DNA from: Paraspadella gotoi
Taxonomy: Eukaryota; Animalia; Chaetognatha
Direction: 5' to 3'
Assembly (NCBI GenBank): GCA_051294375.1
Contig: CM119269.1
Span: 7,139,066-7,203,065, forward strand
Length of the DNA: 64,000 nt
Shown: positions 1,146-63,222 of the stretch, piece by piece
How positions within the stretch are numbered: position 1 is the stretch's first letter
How the letters are laid out: every line of letters begins with the position of its first letter
Position numbers and translations under genes: made by a program
The notes under the pieces: generated by a model
The model's database searches: none
The model's input: only the letters and a program-made list of their open reading frames with translations
Told to the model about the DNA's origin: nothing

Positions 1146-2467
1146 AGGAATTCGAAAAATGATTAAAAGAATCCGAGGAGATTGACGTTCGTCAACCAGC
1201 ATTTTTTTTTTCTTTTGGCCGGGGCGAATCGAAAAATGAAGAGTCGCCTCGAGACGTCGGCCGGTCGATTTGAGGACCCAAAGAAAACGGCCCACGTAAA
1301 GTATAGAGGCGGCCGACAAAAAGTTTGGTAAAAGTGTGTAGACTTGAAGGTCAAAAACTTTGCCGTTCATCTGGGTTGTATTTTGGAAAAAAAAATGATG
1401 ACAATTCGATGTCCTTAATTAAGGACCAAACAAGGACCAAAACAAGCGAATTGGTATTATTGAACATTTACGAACAATGGACACTTGACAAGTCTCTCTG
1501 AGAAGGTAAACATATCGTCATTGCCCATTCAGCTATCGGAGATTGCTTTTGTTAGAAGAATATTCAATCACATTCTATCTTTCACCGTGATGCATCATGG
1601 CCGATTGCTGTCTGGTCTTTCTCTCTCTTCTCTCTCTCTCTCTCTCTCTCTCCTCTCCTCTCTCTCTTCTCTTCTCTCTCCTCTCTCTCTCCTCTCTCTC
1701 TTCCCGATCAGGGCCCAATTTGCCTTTCTAATTTCCGCCCTAATTACGAGGCTAAAATCCTTCGGCAGAGGAGTATTCGTCGTTTTTAAAACCCGTCTCT
1801 TCTTCTTCTTCTTCTCTCTCTCTCCTTCTCTCTCTCTCTCTCCTCTCTCATCTCTCTCTCCCTTCTCTCTCTCTCTACCTCTCTCTTCTCTCTTCCTCTT
1901 TCTCCTCTCTTCTCTCTCTCTCTCTCTCTCTTCTCTCTTTCTCTCTCTCTCTCCAACTTAACATAAAAAAAAAAAATCCTTTCTTCTGTTTCTCTCCCCT
2001 TTTTTTTTTCTTTCTTTTGTTCTCTATTTCAGGCTTTTCTCCCTTCTATTTTTATGGTTTGCATCACCGCTTACCGCCTCGCCGCCGGGCCCTCTTCGCC
2101 TTCGCCGCCTCTGCCGCCACCGCCCCCGCCGCTTCCCCGCCGCCGCCGCCCGCGCTTTCTGCTTCGGCCGCCTCTAGTCTTTCGCTCTCGCAAACAAATG
2201 GAAGATTTTTTTTTTTTTCGGAGAAATCTTTCGTTTTTCATCAAAGGCCGAGCGAGGGCTGACAAAAGAAGAAAACCTGACATCGTCTGCTTTGTTCGGG
2301 AATTCAGTGAAAAAATACATGAGTTAAATTCGGGGATATTTCGAAATTTTTTTTTGAAAGCCTTTTTTCGCTCGATAATTCATTGTCAAGGCTCAGAGTT
2401 ATAACAACCAACTGAGCTTTAGAAGCAAGTGTATACTTATACTACACTATACTCTATATATATATTT

Positions 2468-3290
2468 ATTGAAAATTTGCAAATTACTGTTCACTTTTTT
2501 CTTAATTTTTATATTTTATGAGGATCTTACTGTTATTTATCTTATTATTTTATTCAAATATTTATTGCTGTTCTTTTTCTTAAAATGGTTTTATTTATAT
2601 CTATAATTCAAATTTGGAAGGGGAAGTCAGTTTGTCTTTTCTGGAAATAGAGGGAGATCTATACAACACCAAGGTTTAGATTAATATTCTGTCCTAGTTT
2701 TCTAATAGATATCACACATCATTTCTGTTTAGAAATTTCATTTTTAATGAAAACATCATTAATATCTTAAGAGGCTGAACAGAAAAGGGGTGGAAATGGA
2801 ACTAATTTTTGTGAGGGGGTGACCAAAGTTATATATGATTTTTTTTTTTTTTTTTTTTTTTTACCAATAGGGAATAAGAACTACCATGTAAATTGTATGT
2901 TCTGATAGGGATTATATACCGTGGGAAAGGTATATTAGGCAAACCTCTTATGTCATGAATATTTAATTTTTTAAAGTTTTATTTTTTTATTCTACTTTTT
3001 TAATTGGTTTCTTTTCTGAATATTTTTTACTTTTATTTTATACAATGGGAAGGTCATTCAGTTGGAACGTATACCCTTCATAGATTTCGGCTCTTTAATC
3101 CCATTCCAGCGTATTACTAGGCGAGCCATCACCCAAACTTGGTGATCTCATTCGTTGCTTATCTTTATATTTTAAATGTTATATTCTTTGAATGTTTTTA
3201 TCTGAAACAGACCCAAAGCCCTGGCTTCACCAGTCATCATTAATTTTAGAAGAAATTTTTATTAAGGTTTTGTTAATAATTTGTAATTTG
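2468..3290 (-). repeat. 3' pseudo-LTR of the Naiad element
   Basis: Direct repeat of 6481-7263, e.g. shared GGGGTGACCAAAGTTATATATGA and TACAATGGGAAGGTCAT. Ends on the minus strand in a noisy version of GCAAATTTTCAT followed by (TA)n. Confidence 0.9.
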
Positions 3291-3539
3291 AAATAATAAA
3301 TCGTTAAATAATTAGTTTAATAATAGTTAATAATTTAAGGGTATGTAATGTAAAGTTCAACATTTAAGTTAATTGGTTAAAAGTTAAAAAAATAAATTAA
3401 AATCAGAGAGTTAAATAAGTTAAATAAGTTAAATAGTTATAATAATATTGTTGATGTTTATTATATAATTATTATTTAGTGGTTTATTTTGTTTTTTTCC
3501 TTATCATTTTATTAGGACTATCATGTATAATCTTTTTTG

Positions 3540-6330
3540 AAAATAGATTACATCAGTAACATCTATATTTTTTTTTAGCTCCTTATAATTATTTTGAAAA
3601 ATTTAATCCATTTTTTCTTAAGTCCTCTAAATATATTAAACCCTGGACTGTAGTTTTTGCTTTCTTAAATTTATAGCTCTTGAAGGAACAAATCTTGCTA
3701 AACCGGTCGAACATTATTCTTGCATATCTTATTATTGGCTAATAAAATCACCTTATGTGTGCTTTTTTAGGAATACAACTGTCCCATATGATGGGTAATT
3801 AAACTACTTCAAAGAAAAAGGAATCCCCCCTTTTATCAATAAACAGACAGAGTAAGATTTTTGTTTTCTGATTTAATGTTTAATGTCTAAATAATCTACA
3901 TTTGTCATCTGTACTATTAGATTTATGACAGTAAGTGCTGTCGGCTGGATATATGTTGGCAGATGCATTCTTTAAATCCTTAAAAATCGGCTGAAAAAGG
4001 TCATCAAATATATCCTGACAATTTTTAATTGCTAGCGATCCTAATATATATTTTTTGTCATATTTGCCATAATATTGTTGATTTCCCAAAATAAAATTAA
4101 CACTATTTAGCAATACTTTGACCAGAATCTAGTCAATTTGGTATTCCTAATGTTTGTTTATATATTAGGGGAGCCAAATTTGACCCATAAAACATTATTC
4201 TAAATAAAGTTATCGAGACAATTATTTAATCTCTTCTCAGTAAAAAAATATAACCTATTCTTAGTATTTTGAAAAATATGGCTTTATTATGATTACATTT
4301 ATATATGTTTATTTTCCCTTGAAAAAATTTGTTCTGAATGAAACTCTTTTAGCTTACTCCTTGATTTCATAATTGAGCGAAAAGTGTTGGATATAATGTT
4401 GAAAATCATATGTTCTTTTTAGAAAATCTGTTTTTTAATTGGAGAAATTTTATCAAAAACTCCAAAGAATTATCAAATTATCAGAATGTTTATTCAGATT
4501 TCTGAAAACTACTTGATAGTATACTTTAAGATGATGCCATTAGCCTTTAAACTATTTTTTGAAAAAATGTTTAATTTGCCTTGAGAGAACATTATTTTAG
4601 AGCCAGCTATGTATTCTTTGTTTGTAGGACTTTATGGCATTTTAGGAATAAATAAATATTACGGAAATTCTTTATTTCGTCTTTTTACTTTTAACTCCAT
4701 AATCTTTCACTAAATTAGCTATTCTATTTATTGATAATTTCAGCCGGTTTCATTATTTGAAGTTATATGATTGTGGAGTTCTATTAATTCTCTTTTAAAT
4801 CTTTTGTAACTGAATTTTTTACATGTAAAAATGATATTGTTTGTTGAGCTTTGTCCGCTTGGTGTTATTATAAAATTATCTTGTAACATATTTAGTTCAG
4901 TTTTAAGAACCGTAATTTTTACTAATGGGAATTGTATTTTTAACTTTATTCTTGCCATATTTCTATCCGTTTTTTTAACTAAATTAAAATTCTTTTTTCA
5001 TACATTTTAAAACATTAATATTTATATTTGGTCTTTATTGGCCTGATTTTTTCTTTTTCTATCCAATCTTTAGCATATATATCTATTGATAGTTTTGCAT
5101 ATTATCCATATTTTATTTATCCAATTTATTTTTCTAGATAGTCTTATATTTTGGCCCTTTTTTCAAATTTTTTAAAATTTTCATTTCTCTATTATATTCA
5201 AATTACCTTGTTGATAATATGGTTTATTGATTGCTGGGTCTTTATAGTAGGAATTTTCCGCAGTCACAGACCATTAAATTTATATTAATATTATTTAACA
5301 TCTCATTTTGCAAGCATTTTTTTAAATTAATATTTAACCTGCTATGCTCTTTATCTATATTCTATATCCTATTATTGGGGGTTCCTGTAATTAAAATATA
5401 TTGGTATTTGTTTTGTATGGTTTCACTATTTTAAATTCCCACTACAGATTAATATAAAGTCACAGCTTTATCTATGAAGTTTAATGTGGTAATTTCTTTT
5501 TTTATTTTTTCTGGTTAAACTGGTTAAATGTTCGTATAAGCCTGATATCATTATAATTGCTATCTCGTAAATTTCATATATTCATTATCATTCTATTTCT
5601 ACTTTCATTGTTATTAAAATTAATAATTTTCCTCGTGGGCAACTACTAAAGATATGTTTAATATAATGCATGTGAGTATCTTGATTTTTTAAATTATATT
5701 TATAAATTTTTAAAAAGTTAAGAGTAAAATATTGCCTGGTCTTCTATTTTTTGGTTTTCTATTTTCCACATTGTGATCGCTTTTTTCTCTTTGCTATTTT
5801 CCAATATTCTGATAGTTTTGCTGAAGATGGTACAAAATTCCCTATACCTTTTTAAATCTTACATTTAATCCAAAAGGGGTAAAGATGATTTTTGAAATTT
5901 TTTTTCCCAATGTGCTTCCCTTCTGTCTTAATTTATTTTGATTTATTATATTATTCATTGGTCTAATTTTTTCTATTGGTATAATTCTTAAGTTTTCTAG
6001 ACCATGATTTTCATGTTAAAATGTTGATGGATAATTTGAGAACTTTTTTTCCCTGACCTAATGAATGTTTTATGACGTTAACCCTTATTTCTTAAACTAT
6101 TCTTTGTTTCTCCTATTATTTGCTATTGAACAGATATGACATGATATTAAAATATATTATATTCATGTATTACAGTTTAAAATATTTTGGCCATTTAAAT
6201 TTATTGGAATAAATATGTAATATTTGTTGATTAGATTTAATAAAAAATTACATTCCTTGGAATAAAGGGACAAGTTGCCGCAACCTATTTTGTGCATTTT
6301 TTGTATATTGTGATTAAGGCCATAGGTTAA
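3540..6330 (-). pseudogene. Naiad EN-RT polyprotein, frameshifted (many indels probably long-read errors)
   Basis: Manual minus-strand translation across indels. Endonuclease: KCTKxRCATCP (~6270-6300), NIIYLISCHICxxQYIGETKNSL (~6095-6165), HFNxxNHGLENLRIIPIEK, PFGLN (~5862-5880). Linker: CDCGxxYYKDPxHxHIxTGNLNII (CxC at 5260-5268), KKGPKYR (~5150). RT: PxDKAxNNIIFTCKK (~4815-4865), PKMHKxPTKxRYIAGS (~4600-4650), TYDFSTLY (motif A, ~4390-4412), YKQTLGIP (motif B, ~4140-4172), RYIDDL (motif C, ~4000-4015), IYPAD, DKRxDxFFEVVNYP (~3790-3838), SQxIRYARI (~3715-3742). Confidence 0.88.
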
Positions 6331-6480
6331 CAAGACAGTGGTGACAATATTATGAAATATTCTGTTAATTTATTCATATTTTGATTTTTCAAGTATATTG
6401 AAAAAAAGGAAAATACCATTAAGATTAAATCGGGACATTTCTATGCTCCGCCGCATTAAAATTCAGGGTACTATTATCTT

Positions 6481-7263
6481 ATGAAAATTTGCAATATTAC
6501 TTGTTTCACTATTTTTCTATTCTTTATATTTTATGAAGGATTTAGTATTAATCTTATTTATTTATTCAAATGATATATTCTTTCTTCTTAAAAAATGTTT
6601 TTATTATACTAATATCCAATTCTGGGAAGGGAATCAGTGTTTGTTCTTCTGGAAATAGAGGGAGCGCATCTATACAACACAAGGTTTAGATTACTATCTG
6701 CCTAGTTTTTAATAGATATTCAACACATATTACTGTTTAGTAAATTAAAATCATAATACTCTAAGACGGCGACAGAAGGGGTGGGAATGGACTTAATTTT
6801 TATTGAGGGGTGACCAAAGTTATATATGATTTTTTTTTATTTTTTTTTTACCAATAGGGATAAGACTTACCTGGTAGAATTGTTATGTTCTGATAGGGAT
6901 TACATACCGGGGAAAGGTCTATAGGGGGACCTTTATGTCATTGAATATAATTTAAAGTTATATTTTTCTTTATTCTACTTTTTATCTGTTTCTTTTTGAA
7001 TATTTTATCTTTTTATTTTATACAATGGGAAGGTCATCAAGTTGGGAAACCTATTACCCTTCATGCGGATTTTCGGCTCGTTTAATTCCCAATATCCAGG
7101 TATAGGCGAGCATCACCATAAATGGTTGATCCTTCATTGTTGCTCCATCTTATATTTTAATGTATATCTTGAATGTTTTTCTGAAACAGAACCAAAGCCC
7201 TGGGCTTCACAGATCATAATTTTAGAGACAATTTTATTAAGGTTTTGTAATAATTTGAATTTG
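6481..7263 (-). repeat. 5' pseudo-LTR (upstream partial-tandem copy) of the Naiad element
   Basis: Direct repeat of 2468-3290. Its terminus CAAATTTTCAT is fused directly to the element's 5' leader (6480 down to 6431). Confidence 0.9.
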
Positions 7264-7720: not shown

Positions 7721-7756
<36 letters not shown>

Positions 7757-12300: not shown

Positions 12301-14506
12301 GCCTTTGATAGATTCTTTTTCATCAGTTGCGATTCACATTTATGGTCGGGAAATGGAAGGATATCGCTGATTCATCTCTTTGTTCATTCGCAGCGGCGGC
12401 CGTCGCCAGGATCTGGCGCGACGGCCGGCGTCATTCGGCGTCAGAATTAAACGCTTTCGCGCGTGTGCGAGTGGCGGCGTCTTTCTTACTGACCGAAGCG
12501 CCCTCCTACCCGCAAACCGGCGCCAATCAACGATGATGTTCGGCGCCGCGTTTCAAACAAATGAGTTGGTTTTAAAAAAAACTCAAAGTATGGTTTTCTT
12601 TCCATTTTGCTTTTAATATTAATTTAAATTATTAGATGCCAATTTTTAACGTGAACCATTGTTTTCAGAAAAATTAACCAGCTCTGTAACTGTGGTCATA
12701 GCCCTGTCTTATCAGAACCTTATCTTTACCGAGTTTATTGTTCCCTTAAAATTATCAAATCCAAATTCAACAAGAGCACTAAGTTTTTGAAATATGGCGC
12801 TCTTATTTTTTTTATTCTATATTATTCCCAAAAACAGCATTAACAAAGCAATTTGCGTATTTTTCTGTTTTGTTTCTTAATTAATAAAAATAACAGATTA
12901 CTTATCTTTTGAAATCAAGTCGCGATCGATTTTACAACGTGTCATTGAAGAATCCATAAAAGGGTGTGTATAGAACTTTTAAACACCATTGACCTCATTT
13001 ATATAGACACGGCCCCCTTTCGGCGGCGCATTTCTCACCTCTTGAAGTAAAACTTTGACTCTCAAGGTCATTTTATCGTTTCTTCTGTGAAAGAAAATTT
13101 TTTTTTTTTTAGCAAGAGAAAACTTTCCAATACCATTTTTTTCCTCTCAAAGAAAAAAACTAAATGCAAAATGGACCGATTGGGGACTTTTATGTTCTTC
13201 AAGAAATTGAGAAGCGAGATACTGGCAAGACTAACAAAGATTGAGTGATAGACACGGTTCAGATCGACCGCCTGTCATAAAAAACAAAGCGACGAAAGTA
13301 GCGTAGCCGTTAATTTCAAATTTTAATGGAACCAGCTTAAACTAATCCATTAGTGGTATTTAATTATTGTTGTTAAAAATATTTCTTGCAAAAATATTCC
13401 AAAACATGAGTAATTCGCTAATTAATATTATTATATCACTATTATATAATGGTCAAAATTTTTTTTAGATATTTTTAAGTTTTTTTAATTGATTCTGTAT
13501 AGAAGCTTAAAGTTAAGCAAATATCAATTACAATTTTTTAAAATTTTTGATGTTTTATTACTTGAAAAATTAGTAAAAACTGTTTTTAAAATCATCGGAT
13601 GATGTTGATATTTTTCCCAATTTTAAAACCCATTATTCATCAAAATATTGAAAAAAGAATTTATACTTTGTGCAGATAACTTTTCATACAGCATTTGAAT
13701 CTGCTTTTTAAAAATACATTAATTCCAAAAAAATTTTGACATTTCCTACTCTATAAATAAATATTAAAATTAATTACTAATGCTTCTAGCCATTTTAGAA
13801 AATTTTGTCCATTTAAAGTTTTCTCACGAAATGCTATGATGTTCATTTGGAAAGGTTCCCAAATCAAACTTCTGACCCCTCCCCGATTGACGAGGTTTGG
13901 CCTCTACACGAAAGGAAAACAATTGTGAAAGTCGCCCCTTGACTTCGTTCTCCATATCTCTTCCTTGTTTATCTGACAAAACGCATGGCCGACGCGATCA
14001 ACCGGTCCCGCAGTCTCTCGTCGTCCTTGTGTATGTCTTTTTTTTGTGTGTGTATATCTGTTCTATCCGTCTATCCGGTTTTCTTTCTTTCGTTTCTTTT
14101 TTTCTTTTTTTCTTCTTTCTTTCTCTTTCTTTCTTTCTTTCCTTCCTTTCTTTTCTTTCTTCCTTTCTTTCCTTTTTTTTTATTATTTAGTTATTTATTA
14201 TTTATTTATTTGACTATTTATTTATTATTTATTTATTTATTTTTTATATTTTATTTATTTATTTATTTATTATTATTATTTATATATATCTTCTTTCTTC
14301 TTTCTTCTTTCTTCTTTCTTCTTTCTTTCTTTCTTTTCTCTCTCTTTCTTTGTCTCTCTCTCCATTTCTGTTTATTTTCTCTCTCTCTACGACCAAGATG
14401 AAACATCGTACGCTCGATGAGAACATGACCGATGAAAAAAGTGGAATTACATTTAAGCGAGAGAGAGAGACCAGAGAGAGGGGAGAGAGGAGAGAGAGAG
14501 AGAGAC

Positions 14507-18455: not shown

Positions 18456-20138
18456 TTCTTTAATCGCAATCGCCATCTCACTTGTTAAGCTAGCCATCTC
18501 ACCTTAATTTCTTCCCTCTATTCACCACCTCCCCTGCCATTTCCGCCTAGCGATCCTTCCCTCCAATCCCGACCTTCCTTTCCAAAGTACCACCTCCCCC
18601 TCTTTTCTCTTATTGGCAACCTCCTCTCCACCGATTGCCTTCTCCCTTTATAAGATTGCCATCTCCCTCTCCTTTTCTCCAATCGCCACCCTCTCTCCAC
18701 CGATTGCCAACTCCCCCTTTCAAGATTGCCATCTCCACTATTTTATATCCTCCCCTTCCAACCACGATTTCCTTCTCTCATTCTTTTACAACAATCTTCC
18801 CTTCCTATTCTCCAATGCCCCAACCTATAACTTCTCTCCAACCGATTTGATGCACTTCCTTCTCAAGATGCCATCTCCCCTTCAAGGCATTTCCCCGTTC
18901 TCCAGATCTGACAGCTGCGAAACCTCCGGAGAGTCGATGTCCGAACGAAGAAATGCCGTGAAAACGAGGCCTTCATGCTCGGACGACCGGGGGGGGGCGG
19001 TGGAAGGGGGAGAAGTGAGTGGTTGGAAGGGTGGGGTTGATGGGGTTAAGGGAGGAGGAGGGTGGATGGGTGGGTGATTGGTTCTGGATGGAGGGATGCG
19101 TGAACTGTTTTAGAAAATAAAATTTGAAAAAATAGTAAAGGAAAACAATATTGTCGAGATGAGAGAAGAGTAGAAGAGAGAGAGGAGAGAGAGGAGAGAG
19201 AGAGAGAAGAGATTAAGAGAGAAGAGAGAAGAAAGAAAAGAAAGAAAAAGAAAGAGAAGAAAGAAAGGAAGAGAAAAGAAAGAAGAAAGAAGAGAAAAAA
19301 CAGACAGACGACGCGATCCTAACGCGGAGCATCGACGACCAAGGACGGTACTGAGAGGAAAAGAGGGAAATGCGCTTCATCGTATCGCGATGGTGGCTGA
19401 TCGTCGATAGATTATGCGGATTTCCTGATGGTAGAGTTTAGATCCGAGATTGCTCAGTTGCGATATTGTAGATTGTAACGCAGGCGATATTGTGCATTGT
19501 AGAGCTCGATGAATGTAGTTGGTGAACTACATTCCTGATAGTTGAGCGCGTGAGTCTGAGGAGTCTGTCGGCGAATGCTAACTGACGGTATCTTTCTCAA
19601 GGCCGGTGCCGCCAAGGGGATGAAGGACCGCAGGGAAAAGAGGAGGGACGACGTAGGGGAGGAAAGGAGAGCAAGATGTGTTCGAGAGGGGAACAGAAGA
19701 CCCGGGAGAAGAGGAGAAGGCCTGACGTGAAGGGTGGAGAATCTATCTTGAAAATCATCACCCTATCGTCGTCGTCTCAAAAAAAAAGACTTTAAATTTT
19801 TTAAGTTATCACAGTGGATTTAAAAAGACTTTCCCTTGATCTCGGTCCGGTCGTCGCACAGTGATTTGAAGTTCGTACCCAGGTACAGGCTTGATTAATC
19901 GAATTATCGCGGTGAACGAAAAGAAAAAGAAGTATAAAAAAAAGAAAGATTTTACGGGGATTCGATGTGAAACCGGTGAGGACTATTCAACAAAATTTAA
20001 GCCTCACAAAACGCTGAGGTGGAGGCGGACGTCGCGTTCGTTGTTGTCGGTTGTCTCGGGTTTGTCGTTATTGAAAGTAGAGCGAGACGAGGACAAAGAG
20101 AAGGAATGAGAAAGAGAGAGGAGAAGAAAGGAGAGAGG
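18456..20138 (+). repeat. Direct duplicate of 29130-30650, bounded by two 25-N gaps
   Basis: Both begin T(T)CTTTAATCGCAATCGCCATCTCACTTGTTAAGCTAGCC and stay collinear to the GAGCGAGAC before a (GA)n tract. Confidence 0.92.
18590..18900 (+). repeat. C-rich minisatellite with ~69 bp period and ~23 bp subunits; copy at 29270-29560
   Basis: CCACCGATTGCC recurs at 18628 and 18697, and ATTGCCATCTCC-like subunits repeat. Confidence 0.7.
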
Positions 20139-22591
20139 NNNNNNNNNNNNNNNNNNNNNNNNNTAAATAAATAATAAAAAAAAAGAGAAAGAAAGAGAAG
20201 AAAGAAAGAAAAGAGAAAGAAAGAAAGAAAGAAAGAAGAAAGAAAGAAGAAAAAAGAAAAAAAGAAAGAAAGAAAGAAACCGGATAGACGGATAGACAGA
20301 TATACACACACAAAAAAAGACATACAGAAAGGACGACGAGAGACTCCGGGACCGGGTTGATCGCGTCGGCCATGCGTTTTGTCAGATAAACAAGGAAGAG
20401 ATATGGAGAACGAAGTCAAGGGGCGACTTTCACAATTGTTTTCCTTTTCGTGAGAGGACCTCGTCGGGGTCAGTTTGATTTGGACTTTCCAATGACAGCG
20501 TCGATCGCATTTCGTGAGAAACCGTTCTAATCGACAAATTTTCTAATAATGAGTCTTCCAGATCGCATTTATTATTCTTGAACATAATTTATCTCCATAT
20601 GGTAGATTGCAAATTTATATTGCGATTTGTATTTCTTTAGAAGGAAGCAGACAAATGCTGTATTGAAAGTTTTCTGCAAAAGTAAAAAATTCTTTCTCTT
20701 TATTATGATGAAATGGTTAAAGGAAAAATGAAAATCATCCGAGAGTCTTAAAACAGTTTTACTATTTTCAGAGTAGATAAACATCGCAAAGGCTTTCTTA
20801 AAAAATGTCAAATGCTGTAATTGCTTAACTTACCTTTATACAGATAATTAAAACTTCAAAATATCTAAAAAATTGTAATATGTAATAATTTAGAAACTCG
20901 TTGAATGCAGATATTAAAACAAAACCTTTTGTATGGTCCATAATTTGAAATTAACGGTACATGTCGCTTTGTTTAGAGGCCGTCTAACGTCTATCTCAAT
21001 CTTTTAGTTTCGTATCTCGCTTCTATTAAGTAATCCCAAGGTCATTGCATTATTCTGGAAAAATATGGAAAGTTTCTCAAAAAAAATTTCTACAAACGAA
21101 TGACTAGTCAGTTTATTCAAGGTAATGCAAGGGGCCTGCATTAATAGGTCTTTTTAAAAGTTATCACCTTTTTGGACTAATGACACGTTTAAAATCGATC
21201 GACGATTCAAATAATAACGTATTATAATAAGAAAACAAACGCAAATGCTTTATGCTTTATTAGTAAAATGGCGCCATTTTCAAAACTTAGTGCTCTTGTT
21301 GAATTTGGATTTGATAATTTTAAGGGAACAATAAACTCGGTAAAGATAAGGTTCTGATAGACAGGGCTATGACCACAGTTACAGAGCTGGTAATTTTTCT
21401 GAAAACAATGGTTCACCGTTAAAAATTGGCATCTAATAATTTAATAATATTAAAAGCAAATGGAAGAAACCATACTTTGAGTTTTTTTAAACCAACTCAT
21501 TTGTTTGAACCGCGGCGCCGAACATCATCGTGATTGGCGCCGGTTTGCGGTTGGAGGGCGCCTTTCGTCAGTAAGAAAGACGCCGCCACTCGCACACTCG
21601 CGCGGAAAAGCCTTTAAACTGACGCGAATGAACGCCGCCGTCGCCGCCAGACGCTGGCGACGGCCGCGCGCGAATGAACAAAGAGATGAATCAGCGATTT
21701 CTTCCATTTCCGACCATAAATGTGAATCGCAACTGTGAAAAGATCTATCAAAGGCCTCAATACTCAGCCGCCAGCCCCTTAGTCTCAATACTTGCCTCAG
21801 AGGCTAAACCCTTAGCATTAAACCCATAGGCTACACCCTAAGATATCAGCCCTTCGCACTAAACCTGAGCCTTAGCCCTTAGCTTAACCTAAGCCTTAAG
21901 CCCTTAGTTTTAACCTTTAGCCTGGAAACCTGACAACCTCAACCCTAAATCTTAACGCCTTAACTCTCACCCGGTCTCCATTCCCAATGCCTTCTTTTAG
22001 CTCTAAGTCCTACCCACAGTTCGGACGATGTGAGGAGTATTTTTTTGGCGCGGAAAGTTTTAAAAACTCCTTCAACCTTTTTAAATTGAGAAATTCCTTC
22101 TTCGATGTTCAGTTTTCTCTTCTTTTCTTCTTCATTCTTTTTGATAATATATTACCTCTTTTCCTTTCCATCTTTTCTCTTCTCTTCCCCATCTTCTCTG
22201 TATTTTTTTTCCCTTGCATCATCTGTCATTTTCATTTTTTTTAATATTTCCCACTCCATTCTTTCAATTTTCTTCAGTCTTCCTTTCAAGATTGTCGTAC
22301 GCGACTTAATTCTTTCTCTTCTCCTTTTCTCCTCTCCTCCTTTCCTTTCTCCTCCTCCTCTCTCCTCTTCCTCCACTCTCTCGGCCAACGATTTAAAATT
22401 CATGGCTCGTGCGAATCGCGTAGTAGTAGGGGTGGTGGGGAAGTTGGGGGTGGAGGTGGCATTTGAAGGGTGGCGGGTTGAGGGAATGGGGCCACAACAA
22501 AGATGATGACGTTTTCGGGTGGCTGAAAAAGTCGAAACGATGCCGGACAAGATGGAGACACGCGTCTCTGAAGAAGGAAGAGGAGAAGGAG

Positions 22592-22645
<54 letters not shown>

Positions 22646-23034
22646 GAGAGAGAGAGAGAGAGAGAGACGAGAAGAGGTCTAAAAAACAATAGGAATGAGC
22701 TGACGAGTGAAAGAAGAGAAAAGTCAGGAGGAGAAAAGAAATATAGGAAGGGAGAATGGTTGGGGGAGATGGGAAAAAGGGTTGAAGATGGGAACGATAA
22801 AGTAGAGAAAATAGGAAAAGGGAAAAGAAAATGTGGGAAAAGAAAACAATCGATGAAAAGTATTGGATTGTTGTGACTGAGAGGGAAAGAAAAAGAAGTT
22901 TGGATGACAGTAGTGTTTAAAAAATGTGTTCGTGAAAAGAAATGAAGAATTGAAAAAGGTGAAAATTGAACTGCGAAAAAGAAAAGTAGGATCATTGAGA
23001 CAATGAAATAGAGCGATAGAAAAAAGAGGAGAGA

Positions 23035-23080
<46 letters not shown>

Positions 23081-26000
23081 AGAGAGGAGAGAGAGAGAGA
23101 CAGAGAGAGAGAAAGAAAGAGTAGAGAGAGAGAGAGAGAAAATTTCTCGACTCTAAGAATAGACAGGGTGATTCAACCTCTTAATTGACGATTTGATTGA
23201 GAGCGAATAGGTTGGATAGTTACAGAGACTAGAGAGAGTAAGTTAATGGTCTCCCTTAAGTAGTTTTTGATTTAATTTATATTTTTTAAGCATAATAACT
23301 CAGTCGCATTTTCTTTCATCCACAAATTGGGGTACAGACGGTTTTCTAATATCTATGAAGGTTGTCATGTTTTTGTCGTTTGGTTCGTTGTTCGTTCGGT
23401 TAGTCGTCTTTAATTTTTTAAAATCAGTTTATTCTCTACCCGAAAAATAAAATGGCGGATCGAATCGATGAGACGGAAAAAAAAACCCAAGAGAAGATTG
23501 ATATCGACGACGGACGACGACGACGACGACGACGACCCAATGACTACCGTCAACACGCTCAGAAGCAATTTTAAGATCCAGACTCTTCAATTCTCGTTCA
23601 TCGCTCTTCGATCGCTCAATCCATTAAAAGGTATTTCGAGTCAGAGATTCTTTCTCTCTCCTCTCTCTCTCCTCTCTTCCTCTCTCTCTCTCTCCTCTCT
23701 CTCATCTCTCTCTCTCTTTCTCCTCTCTCCTTTCCTCTCTCTCTCTCTACTTTCCTTGGGGGGGCCTCCCACCCTATCTTAAAGCCCGCCCATTTCTTCT
23801 GCTCTTTTCTCATGGTTTTTTCTCTCTGTTCTTTCTACTCTCTCGTCTCTCTCTCTCTCTCTCTTCTCCTCTCTCTCTCTATTCTCTCTCTCTCTCTCTC
23901 TCCTCTCTTCTCTCTCTCTCTCTCTCTCTCAATGACAAACTCTCGTCTCATGATTTGCTTTTGTACTTCGTAGTTTCGATTCTTCTTTATATACATCGCT
24001 TCATCATTTATTTTTCATTTTTCTATTTATTCATTATTTTTTCCATTTCTGTTTTAACTCATCTCCCTTGATTCTACTCAAATGCCTTAACCCCCGTCTT
24101 CACTTCACCCTCTACACGCATCTACAACTACTCTTTTCTCTACTGCTTTCTCCTTATAGTTTCTTCCTTTCCGGTCTTTCTTTAGTTAATCTCATGCATT
24201 TTATTGTCACAAAACGAACCATCTTTTAAAATTCCTCGTTTCCACTGACGACCTTTTCTCCCTTTTCACTCGACCTGTTTCCTCACTCCAGTCAATTTAT
24301 TTCATAATTCTATCTCGATCCCATTGCTTAACTTCTTTTGCATGCATATTTTCCCCATTTTTCTCAATTGTTCGCTTTTCTTTGCGCTCGCAACCTCCTT
24401 CTCACTCCAACACAAGACTCGCAAAACGGCGACCCGACTTTTCACCTCGCGACCCGACGTTTAACAAATTCTTGTCGAGCGTCATTTGAAAAGAGAGAAA
24501 AAAAAGAAGGAGTAAAAAAAAGATTTTTCCTTTCGCTCGTTTGAACATCACCTCACCACAAATCACTTCCCTTTCTCTATCTCAAATTTCTCCTTCCTAC
24601 CCGTCACGCGTTCATCTATGTTCCAATGCGCCGTCAGCTTTCCTTATTTTTCTTGCCTTCTCTTAATCCCCATCTCGCCTTCTCTGTCACTTCTTTTCCT
24701 TTTATATCTTATATTCCCCTCTTTCTTTTAAATTCCTTCCCTTTTTTTTTTCTTTTCTAAAAGTTTTCGAATTAGCTCATTATCTTTACTCGTTCACTCA
24801 AATCTACATCTCATCCTCTCCGATCTCCCACTTTTCGTCCCTTTCCCCCCACTTCTTCCCCCCCCCCGTCCACCCGTCCCCTCTTCTCCCCCCTATCTCT
24901 TCAGCGCTCTCGTTCTCTCCCCCTCCTCCTTTCCCCCGATCCTCCCTCCTCTCTCGCTAAACATCAATCAAAGTTTCTCGTTTTTCGCGCTCCGATTTCT
25001 AGTTTTTTCTGCCTCAAACCGAAAAAAGAAAATATTCACAATTTAACCCTTTTTTGTCCTCAGTCGAAAGAGTCTCCAGGTTGAACCGTGATACTTGCAC
25101 AGTGCTATCTACAACTATTTCTAATCTAACAGGAAGGGAAAAAAGAAAGTACTTGTCTTAATCTCCGATTACAGACGTTTGGGTGAGCATTGGTGTAGCA
25201 TTGTGAGCGTAACGAATGGTTGTTTCGTAATAGACAAAACTTTTTTGAAGAAGAAAATCGATTTATCCTAGTATCATATTTCATTCATAATCCCTCGATA
25301 CTCGCTCTCATCTTTCTCCTTTCTTCTTTACGCTCTACACCTCTACCTTTTTCACTGCCCTGATTTATCACTCTACCGACTCATGCCCTGATTTCAGTCC
25401 TACTCAGCCTTTCTTCACTGCCCTGTTATTACACACACTCCGGCAACTTCACAGCCCTTTCTCACTACCTGATTAATCACCTCCGCTAACTTCAACAGCC
25501 CTTTCTCACTGCCCCATTTACCCTCCGCTAACTTCACAGCCTCTAAGATCTTCGAATACTGATTTACACCTCCTAATTCGGAGCGAGCCTTGTCTGTGCT
25601 GTTACCCGTTACTACCCTTCTAGCTTTTATACTCCGTAATCAAAGCCCTAGTCTTAATATCTACTATTTCCTGCGCTTGTCGGACATTTTAAAAGTCCTA
25701 ATTCCAACATTATTCTAAAAACCACTTTTCTCTCACCGGACTTAAAATCATTTTTTTATTTACTCCTCGTTCTTTCATCACATTTATAATTCTAATAAAA
25801 TCCTTCGCTCTTATCACATAATGCTACAGTTTAACAACTCACTTAATCCTTCAAGACCTTAAGCACTCTCACTTTTAATTCTTTTCTCTTCATTACCTTT
25901 ATCATTCTCTCTCATCTTTAAATCTTTTTTATTTCTCTTTACTTCTATGTTAGTACTTTACGTGTTTCCACATTATATCCTAAATGCCTTTTCATCAACA

Positions 26001-26229
26001 TTAATCACTCCTCACTTTAAATCCTTTCATTCCTCATCGCCTTATCACTTTCACTTTAAATTCTTTGCTCTTAATCGGCCTTAGTCACTTCTCATCTCGA
26101 TTGCCGACTTCCGTTTGTCACCTTCCACCGCCTCCGCCCTCGAAACGAATCCCAAAGGAACAAAACCAGAAAGTTCTCAATCCTGTAAAAACATGCCGCT
26201 CGAGGAGCCCGAGAGAGGGAGAAGAGAGA

Positions 26230-26267
<38 letters not shown>

Positions 26268-26269
26268 GA

Positions 26270-26310
<41 letters not shown>

Positions 26311-26701
26311 AAGGTAAGACAAATAGGAAGGAAAGGAAGAAGTATGTAACGAAAGAGTCAGAAAAACATCGAGTAAGTAACGAAGAGGAAGCAGGAGATG
26401 GAAGGAAAGAAAATCGGTGGCAGTGAAGAAAACGAACGTGAGAGAACTTGGGGGATGGGAAAACAACGAGGGCGTGACTTTTTAATCCTCAATTTTTTGT
26501 CTGTCTCTCTCCGCTTGTTCCAGTATCCGCATCAGTGAACACTAAGTTTAATTTAAAAGGATAAGAGATTAAAATTTGTTAACAGAAAAAGGGTTCTATC
26601 GTCTAAATCACGTATTTTTCGAAGTGATTATCGTCGAGGTCCAATATCGCGAAGAGGAAATTAACTAAATCCGTCAAAGACTATAACTTATAGTATATAG
26701 T

Positions 26702-27279
26702 ATACTTAAGGAGTGGTCTTTTCATACAATTGAAACATTTTTGAATATTATACCACTTCATTGATAGGAAGCCAGGTACTCTGGGAGTGAATAAAACGAG
26801 ACTGTGAGAGAGTCTTGATTGAAAGGCTTGCAGGGACCTGCTATATCATTATCTTGTAAGAGTGATGGAGCCTTAAACCACCAAAGCCTGTCCAAAGTCA
26901 GGGGCAAGATAGCGTATTATTAAATGAATGGATAATTTTATATTGGTTTGTACAATTCATAAAATTCAGCTCTTGTATTTTGATGCTAGTGCGGAGTACA
27001 ATAAGTTATTCCCGAATAATACTTAAGCGAGTGGTCTTTCATACAATTGAAACATTCTTTGAATATTATACCACTTCATTGATAGGGAAGCCAGGTACTC
27101 TGGGAGTGAATAAACGAGACTGTGAGAGAGTCTTGTTGAAAAGCTTGCAGGGACCTGCTATATCATTATCTTGTAAAGAGTGATGGAGGCCTAAACACCA
27201 AAGCCTGTCCAAAGTAGGGGCAAGATAACTTATTTATTAAATGAAATGGATAATTTTTATATTGTTGTACCAATTTCAT
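26702..27279 (+). mobile_element. Putative non-autonomous mini-PLE (mini-Naiad): partial tandem of a ~319 bp unit
   Basis: Truncated copy 26702-26960 followed by a full unit 26961-27279, ending CAATT(T)CAT. The leader 26961-27014 resembles the Naiad leader. It occupies the same site as the Naiad in the other copy of the locus. No credible ORF. Confidence 0.7.
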
Positions 27280-27863
27280 ATATATAATAAGTATAATATA
27301 GTATAAGTATAACTTGCTTCTAAACTGCAGGCGTTGTCATAACGTCTTGATGCCTTGACAATGATTATGCGAGCGAAAAAAGTCTTAAAAAAAAATTCAA
27401 TATCAGAATTTTAACACATGTATTTTTTCACGAATTCCGAACAGCAGACGATGTCAGGTTTTCTTTGTCAGCCTCGCTTCGGCCTCTTGATGAAAAAACG
27501 AAGAATTTCTCCGAAGAAAAAATCTTTCCATTTGTTTCGAAGGCGAAAATAGAGGCACGAAGCAAGAGCGGCCGGGGCGGCGGCGGCGGCGGCGGCGGCG
27601 GCGGGGGAAGCCGCGGGGCGGGGCGGCGGCGGGCAGAGGGGCGAAGGGGAAGAAGCGGCGGCGCGGTGGTAGCGTTGAGGCACAAAAATAGAAGGGAGAA
27701 AAGCTGGAATAGAGACAAAAAGAAGAAAAAAGTGAAGAGAAAAAGAAGAAAGGATTGTTTTTGTAATGTTACGTTGGCTAAGCTGGTGACGGTTTGGGTT
27801 AGGTTTAGGTTGATAGTTTCAGGCCTTGCAAGGGAGAAGGAGAGAGAGAGAGAGAGAAAGAGA

Positions 27864-27897
<34 letters not shown>

Positions 27898-28011
27898 GGA
27901 GAGAGAGAAGAGAGAGAAGAGAGAGAGAGACGTTTACGACGAGTACTCTGCCTAGGATTTTAGCCTCGTATTAGGCGGAATTAAGCAAATTGCCTGATCG
28001 GGAGAGAGAGA

Positions 28012-28071
<60 letters not shown>

Positions 28072-28942
28072 CTAGACAGCATCGGCCAACGTGACTCATC
28101 ACGGTGAAAGATAAGGAATGTGATGAATATTCTTCTACAATCTACATGCTGATTGCTGAATGGCAATGACGATATGTTACTCAGAGAGACTTGTCAGTGT
28201 CCATTTCAGTATTGTTCAAACCAATTCGCTTGTTTTGGTCCTTAATTAAGATCATCGAAAATTGTCTCATTCAAAAATACCCCCACGCAAGTTTTGCCGT
28301 TCAAGTCTACACTTTTACACTTTTTGTCGGCCGCCTCTAGTTACTTAAACGCCGTTTCTTTGGTCCTCAATCGACCGCGACGTCTCGAAGGCGACTCTCA
28401 ATTTTCGTTCGCCCTCCAAAGAAAAAAAAAATGCTGACGACGTCATCTCCTCGGAATTCTCAATCGAATTCCAAGTCACGTGACACGAGCGGCGCTTTTA
28501 GTGGCCCATTTTCGTCGCAGTCAGCGACGCCGTCGCGACGTCAACGTTGGTGACGTTTTGTGACGTCGACGACCTGGTGACGCCAAATGAAGGGTGACGG
28601 AGGTCACGTGGAATGGCGCAGTGTGGCGTAGAATTTACGCGTCGCGAAGTGGCTTGGCGCTGCTTGGCGTGGCTTAGCCTGGCTAGCACTGCTGCGTGGA
28701 AGGATCAATAAATTAATGATCTTAACCTAAACTAATTTTCGACTTCAGGACAGTTGCACGTAAGTAAGGTCTCGGGATCGAGTCGGGTCGGTGCTCTATT
28801 ATTTATATAAAGTTGGTTATTGATATTTGCTATGAATACTGAGTTCATCTTTAACTGATGACTATTCGTCTACTGGAATCGATACTGAGCTAACCTTTCT
28901 TGTCTTCCTCAATAGTGCTTTTTTTACTTTTTACGGCTCTCT

Positions 28943-29008
<66 letters not shown>

Positions 29009-29822
29009 CTCTCTCATCTCTCTCCCTCTCTCTCTTTCTCTCTCTCATGCTCAAATTGCCGTCTCCCTTTTCCCTTTTTTCTTTTTTTAATTACCATCAA
29101 CCGGTTTTCCTTTCCGGTTGCCATTTCCCTTCTTTAATCGCAATCGCCATCTCACTTGTTAAGCTAGCCATCTCACCTTAATTTTCTTCCCTCTATTCAC
29201 ACCTCCCCGGCCATTTCCGCCTAGCGATCCTTCCCTCCATCCCGACCTTACCTTTCCAAAGTACCACTCCCCCTCTTCTTCTCTATTGGCAACCTCCTCT
29301 CCACCGATTGCCTTCTCCCTTTATAGATTGCCATCTCCCTCTCCTTTTCTCCAATCGCCACCCTCTCTCCACGATTCCAACTCCCCCTTTTCAAGATTGC
29401 CATCTCCATATTTCTTATAGTCACCATCTCCCTTCTCACCGATTGCCTTCTCCCTTTTTAAGAATGCACTCCCTTCTCTATTCTCAATCGCCACCCTCTC
29501 TCCATCCGATTGCCATCTCCCCCTTCAAGATTGCCATTTCCCCCTCCTTTTCTCCAATCTGCAGCTGCGAAACTCGAGAGTCGATGTCCGACGAGAATAT
29601 CCGTGAAAACGAGGCCTTCATCTCGACGACCGGGGGGGGGCGTGGAAGGGGGAGGAAGTGAGTGGTTGGAGGGTGGGGTGGATGGGGGTTAAGGGAAGGT
29701 GGATGGGTGGGTGATTGGTTCTGGTGGAGGATGCGAATGTTTTAGAAAATAAAATTTGAAAAAATTAGTAAAGGAAAAACAATATTGCGAGAAGAGAAGA
29801 GAGAGAGAAGAGAGAGAGAGAG

Positions 29823-29857
<35 letters not shown>

Positions 29858-30662
29858 AAAGAAAGAAAGAAAGAAAGGAAAGAAAGAAAGAAGAAAGAAA
29901 GACAGACAGACAGACGATCCTAACGCGGAGCATCGACGACCAAGGGACGGTACTGAGAGGAAAGAGGGAATCGCTCATCGCTCATCGCGATGGTGGCTGA
30001 TGTCGATGATTATGGATTCCTGATGGTAGAGTTTAGATCCGAGATTGCTCATTGCGTATTGTAGATTGTAACGCAGCGATGGCATTTCGTGATTTGTTAG
30101 AGCATTGATCGAATGTAGTTGATGACTCATTCCTGATAGTTGAGCCGTGAGTCTGAGGAGTCTGCGGCGAATCTACTGACGGATCTTCTCAAGGCCCGGT
30201 GCCGCCAAGGGGATGAAAGAGAAGGGGACGACGAGGGGAGGAGGAGGAGATGTTGAGAGGGGAAGAGAAGACCCGGGAAAGAGGAGAAGGCCCTGACGTT
30301 GAGGGTGGAGTCTATCTTGAAATATCACCATCGTCGTCGTCTCAAAAAAAAAAAAGACTTTAAATTTTTAAGTTATCACAGTGGATTTAAAAGACTTTCC
30401 TTGATCTCGTCCCGTCGTCGCCACAGTGGATTTGGAAGTCGTCCCGGGTTAAGGCTTGATTAATCGAATTCGGGTGAAGAAAAAAAAGAAGTAAAAAAAA
30501 AAAAGATTTACGGGATTTCGATGTGAACCGGTGAGACTATTTCACAAAATTAAAGCCTCACAAACGCTGAGGTGGAGGCGACGTCGTCGTTGTTGTTCGT
30601 CGTTGTTGTCGTCGGGGTTCTGTTCTTATTGAAAGAAGAGCGAGACAGAGAGACAGAAGAGA

Positions 30663-30695
<33 letters not shown>

Positions 30696-30697
30696 GA

Positions 30698-33275: not shown

Positions 33276-34080
33276 ATTTATGACTATGTAGATGAATAAC
33301 AATATAGGGGCCAAGAAATGCATAATGTAACCTGTAAAGAGATACCTTAGAAATGGTGCATCAAAAAATCTCCATAATAAGTATGTAAAAGATCCTTTTT
33401 TAGAAAGGAAGGTATATTGCCTGAGATAAGAAAAGTATATTCTTAAGTACTACGAGGTTCAGTAGAAACGGCTGTAGGGCCAACATCAAAGGCGCGCACT
33501 CTAATCGAAATCAAAACGCACTCAAGATCAGGAGCAGCGCACCAAAGCATCACCACAGAAAGTCAGAACGGAATTACTCGGCAGACTAAAAGCGTTGGCG
33601 CAAAAAGCCGCAAATTGTCGCGACGCAATGATTCGTGTTCGAAGCGACGCAGCGACATCTAATGGCGAAGCAAAAACAGTAGCGCCACCGTCGTTGGCGG
33701 GATGTCTGGCCGAATTCCCGGACAAAAGGCTAATAATCCTTTGGGAGAAGAGAGAACTCTCTCTACTCTCTCGTGCATCTCTCTCTTTCTGCTNNNNNNN
33801 NNNNNNNNNNNNNNNNNNNNNNNNNNNNNNNNNNNNNNNNNNNNNNNNNNNNNNNNNNNNNNNNNNNNNNNNNNNNNNNNNNNNNNNNNNNNNNNNNNNN
33901 NNNNNNNNNNNNNNNNNNNNNNNNNNNNNNNNNNNNNNNNNNNNNNNNNNNNNNNNNNNNNNNNNNNNNNNNNNNNNNNNNNNNNNNNNNNNNNNNNNNN
34001 NNNNGAGAGAGAGAGAGAGAGAGAGAGAGAGCGCTATGTATAAAAGTCATTGGCCAATTTCGATATCCGGTTTTTGCCCT

Positions 34081-34131
34081 TATTTAATAAAGTGAATGGA
34101 TAATATTTTTATTGGTTGCACTAATTTGCAT
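34081..34131 (+). mobile_element. Diverged 3' terminus related to the mini-PLE module
   Basis: TGAATGGATAATATTTTTATTGGTTGCACTAATTTGCAT versus TGAATGGATAATTTTTATATTGGTTGTACCAATTTCAT, just downstream of a (GA)n tract. Confidence 0.5.
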
Positions 34132-38642: not shown

Positions 38643-39459
38643 GATTATGACTAACGACCCGCGGGAATAGACGACCGTTTTTATGAATTTTATATATATA
38701 TTTTTCTTTCTTTTTAATTACTTTCCCTTTTTTTTAAATTTTACCTAAAGTTTTTTTTTGGGGGGGTTTTATATATAATTTTATTTATTTTATTATTTCT
38801 ACTTTCCTTTAAACTTTTAAGTCACGGGTCAACCGGTTGTCTCATCCATAGATGTAGTCGGGCATTGCCTAGGTTCACCCCGCCTACAAGCATGACACCT
38901 TCAGTCGTGACCCGGTGACTCATTGAGTAAAGCCATCAGTTCATGACCACAAGGTACTGGGAAGCGTGAGGACGGCCGTAAGACGCCTTGGGGGCGTGGC
39001 AAACCCTCAAGCCTGGTTCCAAGCCCAGGGACCCGTTCCATGGCTGCTAGAGGGGGTTATAGAAGTCACCGACATTCATCTTCAGCCCACGAAGCGCCTT
39101 ATCCACATACATTTCGCTTATCGCAATGATCTTTATGATATAGCATAAAAATAAAGAAACAAGTAAGGAATGATTTATTCATAAAAATCAGCAATCATCA
39201 ACACAGTGACGTTTTTAAAAAATGTATAATTATATTCGATTTAATAATCGAATATAATTATACATTTTTTACTAAAAATCATAACTTGTAGAAAGTCAAG
39301 GTGCGATTATTTTTTTTTTTTAAAGAGGGAAGGAGTATTAGTTCTAAAGCAGTTTTTTTTTGTGATAGCGACTAGCGAGTGATCAACGCTGCGAAAAATA
39401 ATTAATATAAATATTTGTCGCTTTGTTCCATTGAATTTCACTTTTCACGTCTTATTTGA

Positions 39460-39650
39460 ATAATTGAATGAATGAATGAATGAATGAATGAATGAATGAA
39501 TGAATGAATGAATGGATGGATGGATGAATGAATGAATGAATGAATGAATGAATGAATGAATGAATGAATGAATGAATGAATGAATGAAGAATGAATGAAT
39601 GAATGAATGAATAAAGAAATAAATAAAGAAATTTTTAAATAAATAATTTT

Positions 39651-39742
<92 letters not shown>

Positions 39743-39772
39743 ATATATATATAAATAAATAAATAAATAAAT
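39460..39772 (+). repeat. Compound (GAAT)n and (AAAT)n microsatellite
   Basis: Seen directly. Confidence 0.95.
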
Positions 39773-44911: not shown

Positions 44912-45068
44912 CGAAAGCTTGCAGGGCACCTTGCCTATGTCCAATTATCTTGTATAGTGCATGTTAGGCCTTAAACCACCAAAGCCTGTCTATAGTGAGC
45001 CCGAGCAAAGATAGCTTACTTTATTAAATGAACTGGATAATTTCTTATAATTCGGTTGTAACCAATTA
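44912..45068 (+). mobile_element. 3' part of the mini-PLE terminal module (its end also emerges from the gap at 41369-41409)
   Basis: AAAGCTTGCAGGG, CCTTAAACCACCAAAGCCTGTC, TGGATAATTT and CCAATT match 26825-26960. Confidence 0.8.
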
Positions 45069-45420
45069 CACCAAAAACAAATTCTACTCTAGTAATTTCT
45101 CTCTTTTCATTCACTCTTTTTTTTCACTCTTGACTTTCTTGGCAACTTTTCTTTTCAATTCATTTCATGTGGGGCGTCAGCGGGCTCGAGGGCCGTTCGG
45201 AGACAAGAGCGGGGCTGCGTGGCGTGAGGGCTGAAAAGGAAAATGCGGCGAGGGGCATTTCTCACTCGACTCACTTTCCTTTTTTTGGCTCTCTCGATCT
45301 CGCCTGAGCTTCCAATTTTACTATTTTTCCTTTCTTATCTTCCTTTTTTTCCCCCCGTTTTTCCCTTTAAAATTTTCTCCGGTTTTTGCCCCCAAATTTT
45401 TTTTAATATATTTTTAGTCG

Positions 45421-62934: not shown

Positions 62935-63222
62935 CCACACAATTTATAAAAATTATCCAATTATGTCGAGCTGTTTTAATTAAATAGGCCTCATCTTCGC
63001 CCCTGACTTTAGACAGGCTTTGCGGTGGGCTTTTGAAGCGCGCCCCCATCACTCTTATCAAGATATCTCCTAACATGGCAGGTCCCTGCAAGCTCCTCAA
63101 TCAAGACTCTCTCAGTCTCCCGATCTCTTTTCTATTCATCCCAGAGTACCTGAGCTTCCCTATCGGCAACGAGGTGCGGCTATTAATTTTCAAAGAATGT
63201 TATCAAATGATTGTAATAATAT
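62935..63222 (-). mobile_element. Copy of the ~260 bp mini-PLE terminal module
   Basis: Reverse complement matches 27035-27270: GATAGGGAAGC, CAGGTACTCTGGGA, GAGAGTCTTGATTGA, GCTTGCAGGGACCTGC, AAAGCCTGTC, GGATAATTTTTATA. Confidence 0.8.

Follow-up and report, generated by a model that had tools for sequence, protein, structure and literature searches.

How the RNAs of Naiads, Penelope-like elements (PLEs) with an N-terminal endonuclease, are processed and recognised without a canonical hammerhead ribozyme is a question that stands in the paper describing these elements (PMC8557442). A short insert in the genome of the chaetognath Paraspadella gotoi narrows this question to 320 nucleotides (nt). 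The insert lies in a stretch of 64,000 nt of contig CM119269.1 (assembly GCA_051294375.1, positions 7,139,066 to 7,203,065), hereafter the window, which also carries a 4.8-kb Naiad. An earlier note, made from the letters alone, had proposed that the insert belongs to a non-autonomous family sharing its leader and terminus with that Naiad. The analysis identifies the element as a real non-autonomous mini-Naiad. It is probably best understood as an abundant, protein-free element of about 320 nt that carries a Naiad terminus and leader and a twister-like fold, and whose unit RNAs are likely reverse-transcribed by Naiad protein.

The 320-nt unit and its copies

The insert occupies positions 26702-27280 of the window and consists of a first module copy, a 58-nt leader and a second module copy. 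Its parts and flanks are as follows.

26702..26960, plus strand: 5'-truncated upstream copy of the ~320-nt unit (module copy 1), which acts as a pseudo-long terminal repeat (pLTR) and ends in ...CAATTCAT; in reads, the leader precedes this start at other loci
26961..27280, plus strand: full, non-coding ~320-nt unit, reaching from the first base past one terminal CAT through the following one
26961-27018, plus strand: leader stretch between the module copies
27019-27280, plus strand: module copy 2
26680..26701, unstranded: TA-rich (TATAG/TATAA-type) target, left flank, matching the flank of the 4.8-kb Naiad
27281..27312, unstranded: TA-rich target, right flank, matching the Naiad's flank; a target-site duplication is not discernible

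The module copies are 92% identical, and their arrangement is the same partial tandem as in the 4.8-kb Naiad. The mini-Naiad has no coding capacity, the longest ATG open reading frame (ORF) being 66 amino acids, and no poly(A) tail was found in the letters of the insert. The coordinates and the leader and terminus letters quoted in the earlier note were correct on recheck, and its description of an ORF-less partial tandem with the Naiad's layout stands. Leader and module, which it had taken as separate parts, form a single unit of 320 nt of which copy 1 is a truncated example, since the reads show the leader ahead of the module start and the other copies in the window are 5'-truncated. In read run X1, a loose end at 26702 is seen in 10 contigs, with the leader ahead of the module start. 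Among contigs passing the leader end (40, agreement 0.82), the consensus continues as the start of the module; among those passing the module start (10, agreement 0.89), it continues as the leader. The element thus takes the form of a short AT-rich tandem unit, with a head-to-tail junction from module end to leader in 10 contigs of run X1 and 34 of run X2. The leader-module junction is bridged by 4 of the 27 contig pieces listed, one of which extends into 1.2 kb of other DNA, and is not unique to this locus, as it would be after a one-off deletion or in a chimeric read. Three contigs bearing a second organism label also map to the mini-Naiad.

In run X2, the flanks have a depth of about 115, the module of 5e4-3.8e6 and the leader of 6e5, and the window Naiad has about 700 over its body and 1.5e5 at its 3' end. 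These depth sums are orders of magnitude only, not copy numbers; they point to thousands of copies of the mini-Naiad. Run X9, whose RNA nature is a guess, has a coverage of the mini-Naiad and of the Naiad end much like that of the low-depth DNA run and was not used for expression. Four more matches to the 3' part of the unit occur in the window at three loci, and every one is 5'-truncated, so that copies of the mini-Naiad have fixed 3' ends and variable 5' ends.

62975..63209, minus strand: dispersed 5'-truncated copy with twister core
44914..45070, plus strand: dispersed 5'-truncated copy, twister decayed (41369-41411 is an assembly duplicate of the same locus)
34079..34130, plus strand: dispersed 3'-end fragment, ending in CAT

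The junction in the reads, the depth and the dispersed copies bear out the multi-copy, non-autonomous family that had been proposed. An exact pattern of the twister region matched neither viral contigs (0 loci) nor metagenome contigs (0 loci). The unit also contains a run of stable hairpins 5' of the twister (26775-26850 and 27088-27165, plus strand), for example CGAGACU/AGUCUUG and GCAGG/CCUGC.

Terminus and leader shared with Naiads

Naiads are defined by a GIY-YIG domain N-terminal to the reverse transcriptase (RT), together with CX2-5CxxC, CxC, GxKF/Y and DKA motifs, and they favour (TA)n targets (PMC8557442). The 4.8-kb element of the window is a Naiad, as judged from its sequence. Its frames contain, in order, a GIY-YIG region and then the CxC, GPKY, DKA and RT motifs (CDC, GPKY and ADKA being read). 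A single-frame search returned two relatives, one of which (P0001) has a GIY-YIG match with E 0.00055. The best of 44 full-length relatives, P0068 (910 amino acids), aligns collinearly in tblastn from residue 66 to 879, its single ORF placing GIY-YIG N-terminal to RT, and each of the four defining motifs is present in 43-44 of the 44. Pfam gave no relevant match on three raw Naiad frames, and no relatives of the Naiad alignment were found in viral contigs. The features of this element and the two leader motifs of the window are listed below.

2466..7263, minus strand: Naiad of autonomous type, occupying the corresponding site in the inverted arm
7263-6481, leader from 6480, and about 3290-2466, minus strand: first pLTR, leader and second pLTR of the Naiad
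about 6122-5713 and on to about 3646, minus strand: frame-broken ORF, with the endonuclease at 6122-5713 and the RT reaching about 3646
7030..7115, minus strand: hammerhead-like core, reordered (GAAA ahead of CUGAUGA), in the first Naiad pLTR
3130-3045, minus strand: hammerhead-like core, reordered, in the second Naiad pLTR
6430..6455, minus strand: leader motif in the window Naiad, whose hairpin GGAGCAU/AUGUCC has one mismatch
26984..27014, plus strand: Naiad 5' leader motif in the mini-Naiad (TGC, short spacer, GG-hairpin, (C/T)(C/T)CGA), 24 nt past the terminal CAT

The leader of the window Naiad, whose letters stay as window text without correction from reads, starts right past the terminal CAT at 6481. 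The TGC of the motif lies 24 nt from a CAT in the mini-Naiad, 26 nt in the window Naiad, 24 nt in the related locus L002 and 25 nt in L006. Three of the six related Naiad loci (L002, L005 and L006) carry the motif; the five leaders were anchored by it, MAFFT having misaligned them. Published Naiads start with TGC-GGTGGA, followed by a variable covarying hairpin and TCCCCGA or a near variant, and the leader motif was recognised by eye in ten among 49 headers viewed (CGi, Sglo, Olur, Tgra, Pmar, Mcor, Mgal, Bpla, Mphi and Skow-1; PMC8557442 File S5). Over 128 kb of strands, a loosened regular expression matches at only two places, one in the mini-Naiad and one in the window Naiad. The motif is rare in shuffled controls, with 2/50,000 for the first 70 nt of the mini-Naiad and 62/50,000 for the Naiad. 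The TTTCAT terminus and the leader motif are common to the mini-Naiad, the window Naiad and L002, and TTTTCAT is the end of the L001/L002 family as well. Since terminus and leader occur in independent Naiad loci and in published consensi, they can be regarded as genuine Naiad features, and the suggestion that they are conserved signals is upheld.

The likeness between the mini-Naiad and the window Naiad goes no further. The global alignment score of the two leaders is reached by 19/5000 shuffles and the local score by 259/5000; over the last 60 nt, the score is reached by 2539/5000. Taken as a pair, the leaders agree only modestly, and the match of the last 60 nt as a whole is rejected as chance. 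The score of the module against the two Naiad pLTRs is reached by 317/1000 and 673/1000 shuffles, and the weak internal match that had been reported (TGGGA...TAAACGAG) was discarded at this chance level.

The Naiad and the mini-Naiad occupy equivalent TA-rich sites of two inverted near-copies, 518-14193 and 20164-29033, which are 77-90% identical with differences rich in indels; the earlier note had overlooked this common site. These arms may be alleles, paralogues or a misassembly. The long-read text of the window is rich in errors, and most differences between accurate contigs and the flank are gaps. An empty-site joint of the mini-Naiad was not found among the 15 of 130 read joints listed.

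A twister-like fold in the unit and in published Naiads

The earlier note spoke of a hammerhead-less RNA, implying that no ribozyme was present. No hammerhead family matched the mini-Naiad at E up to 10 (Rfam, insert and window), but the unit carries a twister-like fold. The Rfam model Twister-P5 (RF02684) matches at 26861-26902 with 23.6 bits, E 0.011 for the insert and E 1.2 for the whole window. Because this score lies under the gathering score of 37.6 bits, the unit is filed as twister-like and not as a member of the Rfam family. The Rfam model cannot score pseudoknots, and the pairings predicted below follow PMC5408937.

26850..26911, plus strand: type-P5 twister-like ribozyme, copy 1 (Rfam RF02684, descriptor)
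26850-56/26905-11, plus strand: copy 1 P5, 7-bp helix enclosing the core
26860-63 and 26877-79, plus strand: copy 1 P2, 3' strand and 5' strand
26864-68, 26874-76 and 26880-81, plus strand: copy 1 GA with T1 strand, UAA, and T2 strand
26887-90/26899-902, plus strand: copy 1 P4 (CCUG/CAGG), with L4 at 26891-98
26869-73, plus strand: copy 1 palindromic linker, AGGCCU once the read-supported G is added
U26874/A26875, plus strand: predicted cut of copy 1
27167..27227, plus strand: twister-like ribozyme, copy 2, with single-base deletions in the window text

The two twister sites lie about 318 nt apart. The module keeps the UAA, with the cleavage-site A, and the GA, with the general-base G. The closing G-C of P4 and an 8-nt L4 are present, and the ends lie within the 7-bp P5. 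Both pseudoknots are Watson-Crick throughout, T1 with three pairs (UGG/CCA) and T2 with two (AC/GU), and the departures from the Rfam consensus are all paired (one U-A in P4, one A-U in T1 and one A-U in T2). The P1 hairpin is replaced by a 6-nt palindrome with a homodimer energy of -11.3 kcal/mol. Reads of runs X1, X2, X9 and X11 insert a G past 26869; with it, the linker that joins the T1 strand to the UAA reads exactly AGGCCU. The deletions of copy 2 after 27195 and 27215 are filled in some read contigs. Among the substitutions listed (two further rows aside), the only one at 10% or above within the core is at 26871, an alignment echo of the G insertion.

A Watson-Crick descriptor of T1, T2, P4 and the conserved bases finds two places in the window and is matched by 101/393,972 shuffled units; with G-U pairs allowed, 1150/352,806 match. 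G-U matches at AT-rich 39238 and 56800 were treated as chance. P1 is reported to be dispensable in twister ribozymes (10.1101/2024.07.11.603121, PMC5408937), and the CHiTA study found that P2 flaws and a missing P1 are tolerated (10.1101/2024.07.11.603121). The unit agrees with type-P5 twisters in strand order, UAA, GA, P4/L4, T1, T2 and the enclosing P5, and differs in its palindrome in place of P1, a P2 of two pairs, swapped T1/T2 pairs and the score under the gathering level.

The same type-P5 fold was found in the 3' untranslated regions of seven published Naiads, namely Naiad-1_Movir, Naiad-4_Chem, Mgal, Bpla, Mphi, Scon and Mmer (PMC8557442 File S5). These are seven of 54 consensi, obtained by inspecting by eye the last ~200-450 nt of 48 consensi and by motif searches; loop-motif searches of the Naiad supplement gave mostly non-twister matches. 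In the seven folds, P5, P4, T1 and T2 have covarying pairs, and palindromes replace P1. Mgal and Bpla have P4 and T2 in common with the mini-Naiad, and P2 has the same two-pair form in Naiad_Mgal, Bpla and Mphi. The authors of the Naiad study searched for hammerheads only, and the word twister has 0 uses in the available text (PMC8557442). Our literature search, with the Repbase, Dfam and Roth 2014 lists outside its scope, found 0 papers with both twister and Naiad, and in the search listings and passages of PMC10085705 no twister in a PLE and no non-autonomous Naiad.

The relatives L001 (3080-3160), L002 (250-330) and L003 (2100-2180) share with the window Naiad a hammerhead-like core in which GAAA precedes CUGAUGA and the helices are conserved. 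A twister was found neither in the window Naiad nor in any of the six related loci, a miss that the error-rich window text makes weak. The predicted ribozyme type thus differs among Naiad families, since the window Naiad and L001-L003 have the reordered hammerhead-like core and the seven published Naiads have the twister fold. Because of this difference, the parent of the mini-Naiad would not be the window Naiad's family; given also that the unit has no significant match outside terminus and leader, its parent was not found.

A second repeat of the window (38853-39107, plus strand), BLAST-dissimilar to the mini-Naiad, has a type-P5 twister-like core at 38968-39029. This core has a P3 stem, and precisely the place of P1 is taken by one 6-nt palindrome, CGGCCG. 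The repeat starts with TG and ends with CA, has near-matching 4-nt flanks and may be a solo LTR; an assembly duplicate lies near 41776-42030. Direct near-duplicates with 84-89% identity pair 38874-40468 with 41776-43564, 41369-41752 with 45023-45420, 45421-48519 with 48660-51770, and 18456-20137 with 29130-30696. Several adjoin N gaps, and they are likely redundant reads in the assembly. A 67-68-nt tandem repeat (family D19) occurs at 18612-18817 and 29285-29559.

Proposed processing and recognition, and alternative explanations

By analogy, the mini-Naiad is likely a twister version of a retrozyme. Metazoan non-LTR retrozymes are likewise non-coding, AT-rich tandem units of ~300 nt, each carrying one ribozyme; they are proposed PLE partners and are processed to unit RNA and circles (PMC7229834; 10.64898/2026.07.22.740005). 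They differ in having a type I hammerhead and in being tied to canonical PLEs, whereas the mini-Naiad is twister-like, tied to Naiads and known from sequence alone. Because no type I hammerhead was found, it is not a member of these retrozymes but likely works like one. For N-terminal-endonuclease PLEs, of which the earlier note knew no such partner, non-autonomous derivatives are described among the Chlamys elements, including MRC1 (Craig et al. 2021, PMC8557442). MRC1-type elements are, like the mini-Naiad, non-coding and form pLTRs and head-to-tail copies. Chlamys elements are algal and have 3' ends similar to those of autonomous families, and no ribozyme is described for them in the available text (PMC8557442); the mini-Naiad is of the animal Naiad type, has only terminus and leader in common with the adjacent Naiad and carries a twister-like fold. 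Naiads share with it the leader motif, the terminus, the partial tandem, at the main locus the TA target and, in seven consensi, the twister fold (PMC8557442), whereas the mini-Naiad has no ORF, one-tenth of the length and one short palindrome, compared with two in twister-bearing Naiads. The twister T-variants of Schistosoma Perere-3 also represent impaired-P1 twisters inside a retroelement, but that element is autonomous and non-LTR, and its twister lies at the 5' end, where target duplication completes P1, and not at a PLE 3' end (PMC8501958).

The steps by which such a unit might move can be proposed. Transcription across two units would be driven by a promoter in the pLTR or by the host. 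The 6-nt palindromes of two copies are predicted to pair and to supply a 6-bp P1 to each active site, because the palindrome sits exactly between the T1 strand and the UAA; minimal PLE hammerheads do likewise with stem III. Dimer-assisted cleavage is proposed from this analogy with palindromic PLE hammerheads and from the homodimer energy. A cut at U/A, about 86 nt ahead of the DNA 3' end, would release a ~320-nt RNA that could circularise, as in hammerhead retrozymes. In a permuted or circular RNA, the leader hairpin would lie 24-55 nt downstream of the terminal CAT. The GIY-YIG domain would first nick TA-rich DNA; Naiad protein would bind the leader hairpin, and reverse transcription would begin internally at the CAT. 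Copying round or along more than one unit would then produce the partial tandem. Internal initiation on RNA spanning the pLTR junction has been demonstrated for a Poseidon PLE. The proposed mechanism would explain why sharing is limited to terminus and leader and why the ribozyme varies by family. That Naiad proteins, and in particular those of the window Naiad's family, mobilise the unit is an inference. It is possible, and offered tentatively, that the unit is a Naiad parasite of 320 nt whose twister acts only as a domain-swapped dimer via its one palindrome, and whose circular RNA is captured through the Naiad-wide leader hairpin by a family with a different ribozyme, with reverse transcription starting about 25 nt upstream.

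Several observations weigh against the interpretation of the unit as a twister-bearing mini-Naiad. The Rfam score is under the gathering score, the match has E 1.2 over the whole window, and the descriptor was composed after the Rfam hit was known. T2 is AC/GU where GC is conserved, and P2 has two pairs and a mismatch, with one strand of 3 nt, where four pairs are expected; an altered P2 length might disturb the active site (PMC5408937). Module copy 1 by itself folds with a z of -1.2, compared with -3.9 for the full unit 26961..27280 (200 shuffles). Only the L005 leader hairpin is more stable than shuffles, the other four of five individually not. The (TA)n target is seen at the main locus and is absent as the ending of three other window copies, and the site common to mini-Naiad and Naiad is a single observation. 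Beyond terminus and leader there is no significant match of the unit to the window Naiad or to six related loci, and the window Naiad has another ribozyme type.

Some of these points would suit a mini-Naiad whose twister is inactive and simply carried along, having come down from a twister-type Naiad or been acquired from twister-bearing LTR elements in this genome; its copies would spread by uncut linear read-through RNA. The sub-threshold score, the weak P2 and the absent P1 hairpin are in line with this, as are the second window element (38853-39107) with the same single-palindrome design and the view that ribozymes may merely parasitise PLEs (Craig et al., PMC8557442). We nevertheless regard it as unlikely, given that all catalytic bases are kept, that both pseudoknots are preserved via paired changes and that the common read variants sit outside the core. 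The unit could instead be the 3' end of a twister-type autonomous Naiad that has not been seen and that mobilises it in cis; most copies would then be ordinary ends with 5' truncation, and the leader-fused form a minor deletion derivative. Such a parent, possible at low copy where only reads and window were examined, would account for a module depth several-fold above leader depth and for the many contigs that exit the module near 27062-27065 into unlike DNA, and the window Naiad shows such a pattern (1.5e5 at the 3' end, ~700 over the body). The contig consensus joins leader end to module start and module start to leader (40 and 10 contigs, agreement 0.82 and 0.89), however, and the leader depth of 6e5 is well above that of the Naiad body, which makes a hidden parent quite improbable.

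The identity of the element as a retroelement of another class was also weighed. A chance twister likeness, or a short or long interspersed element (SINE or LINE) tail unrelated to Naiads, would be compatible with the whole-window E of 1.2 and with a local leader score reached in 259/5000 shuffles. This is very unlikely in view of the descriptor shuffles, the same fold in seven published Naiads and the leader geometry. A SINE, named in the earlier note as a possible source of the module, would, if tRNA-derived, have a tRNA-like head with A and B boxes; ARAGORN found 0 tRNA genes, Pol III A/B box patterns gave 0 matches, and no poly(A) tail is present. The repeat-spacer-repeat layout recalls a terminal-repeat retrotransposon in miniature (TRIM), made up of an LTR, a 58-nt inner part and another LTR, in which both LTRs would hold a twister and the helper would be an LTR-retrotransposon. 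This reading is scarcely credible, since the sense strand has no TG start, no TGG primer site occurs within 8 nt on either strand, the longest purine runs are 3 and 5 nt, 3' ends are fixed and 5' ends variable, and the spacer is the Naiad leader. TRIM or LTR retrozyme identity, with its TG..CA ends, primer-binding site and polypurine tract, is thus largely refuted.

The interpretation as an abundant twister-bearing mini-Naiad makes the unit well suited as a substrate for assays of cleavage and reverse transcription. If the tentative parasite model is true, the ribozyme would be a swappable part, and terminus and leader would be the sole recognition signal. The leader motif provides a practical marker of Naiad 5' ends and their non-coding derivatives. 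If the mini-Naiad cleaves, animal retrozymes would extend past hammerheads, and it would represent a natural twister that may require a partner copy.
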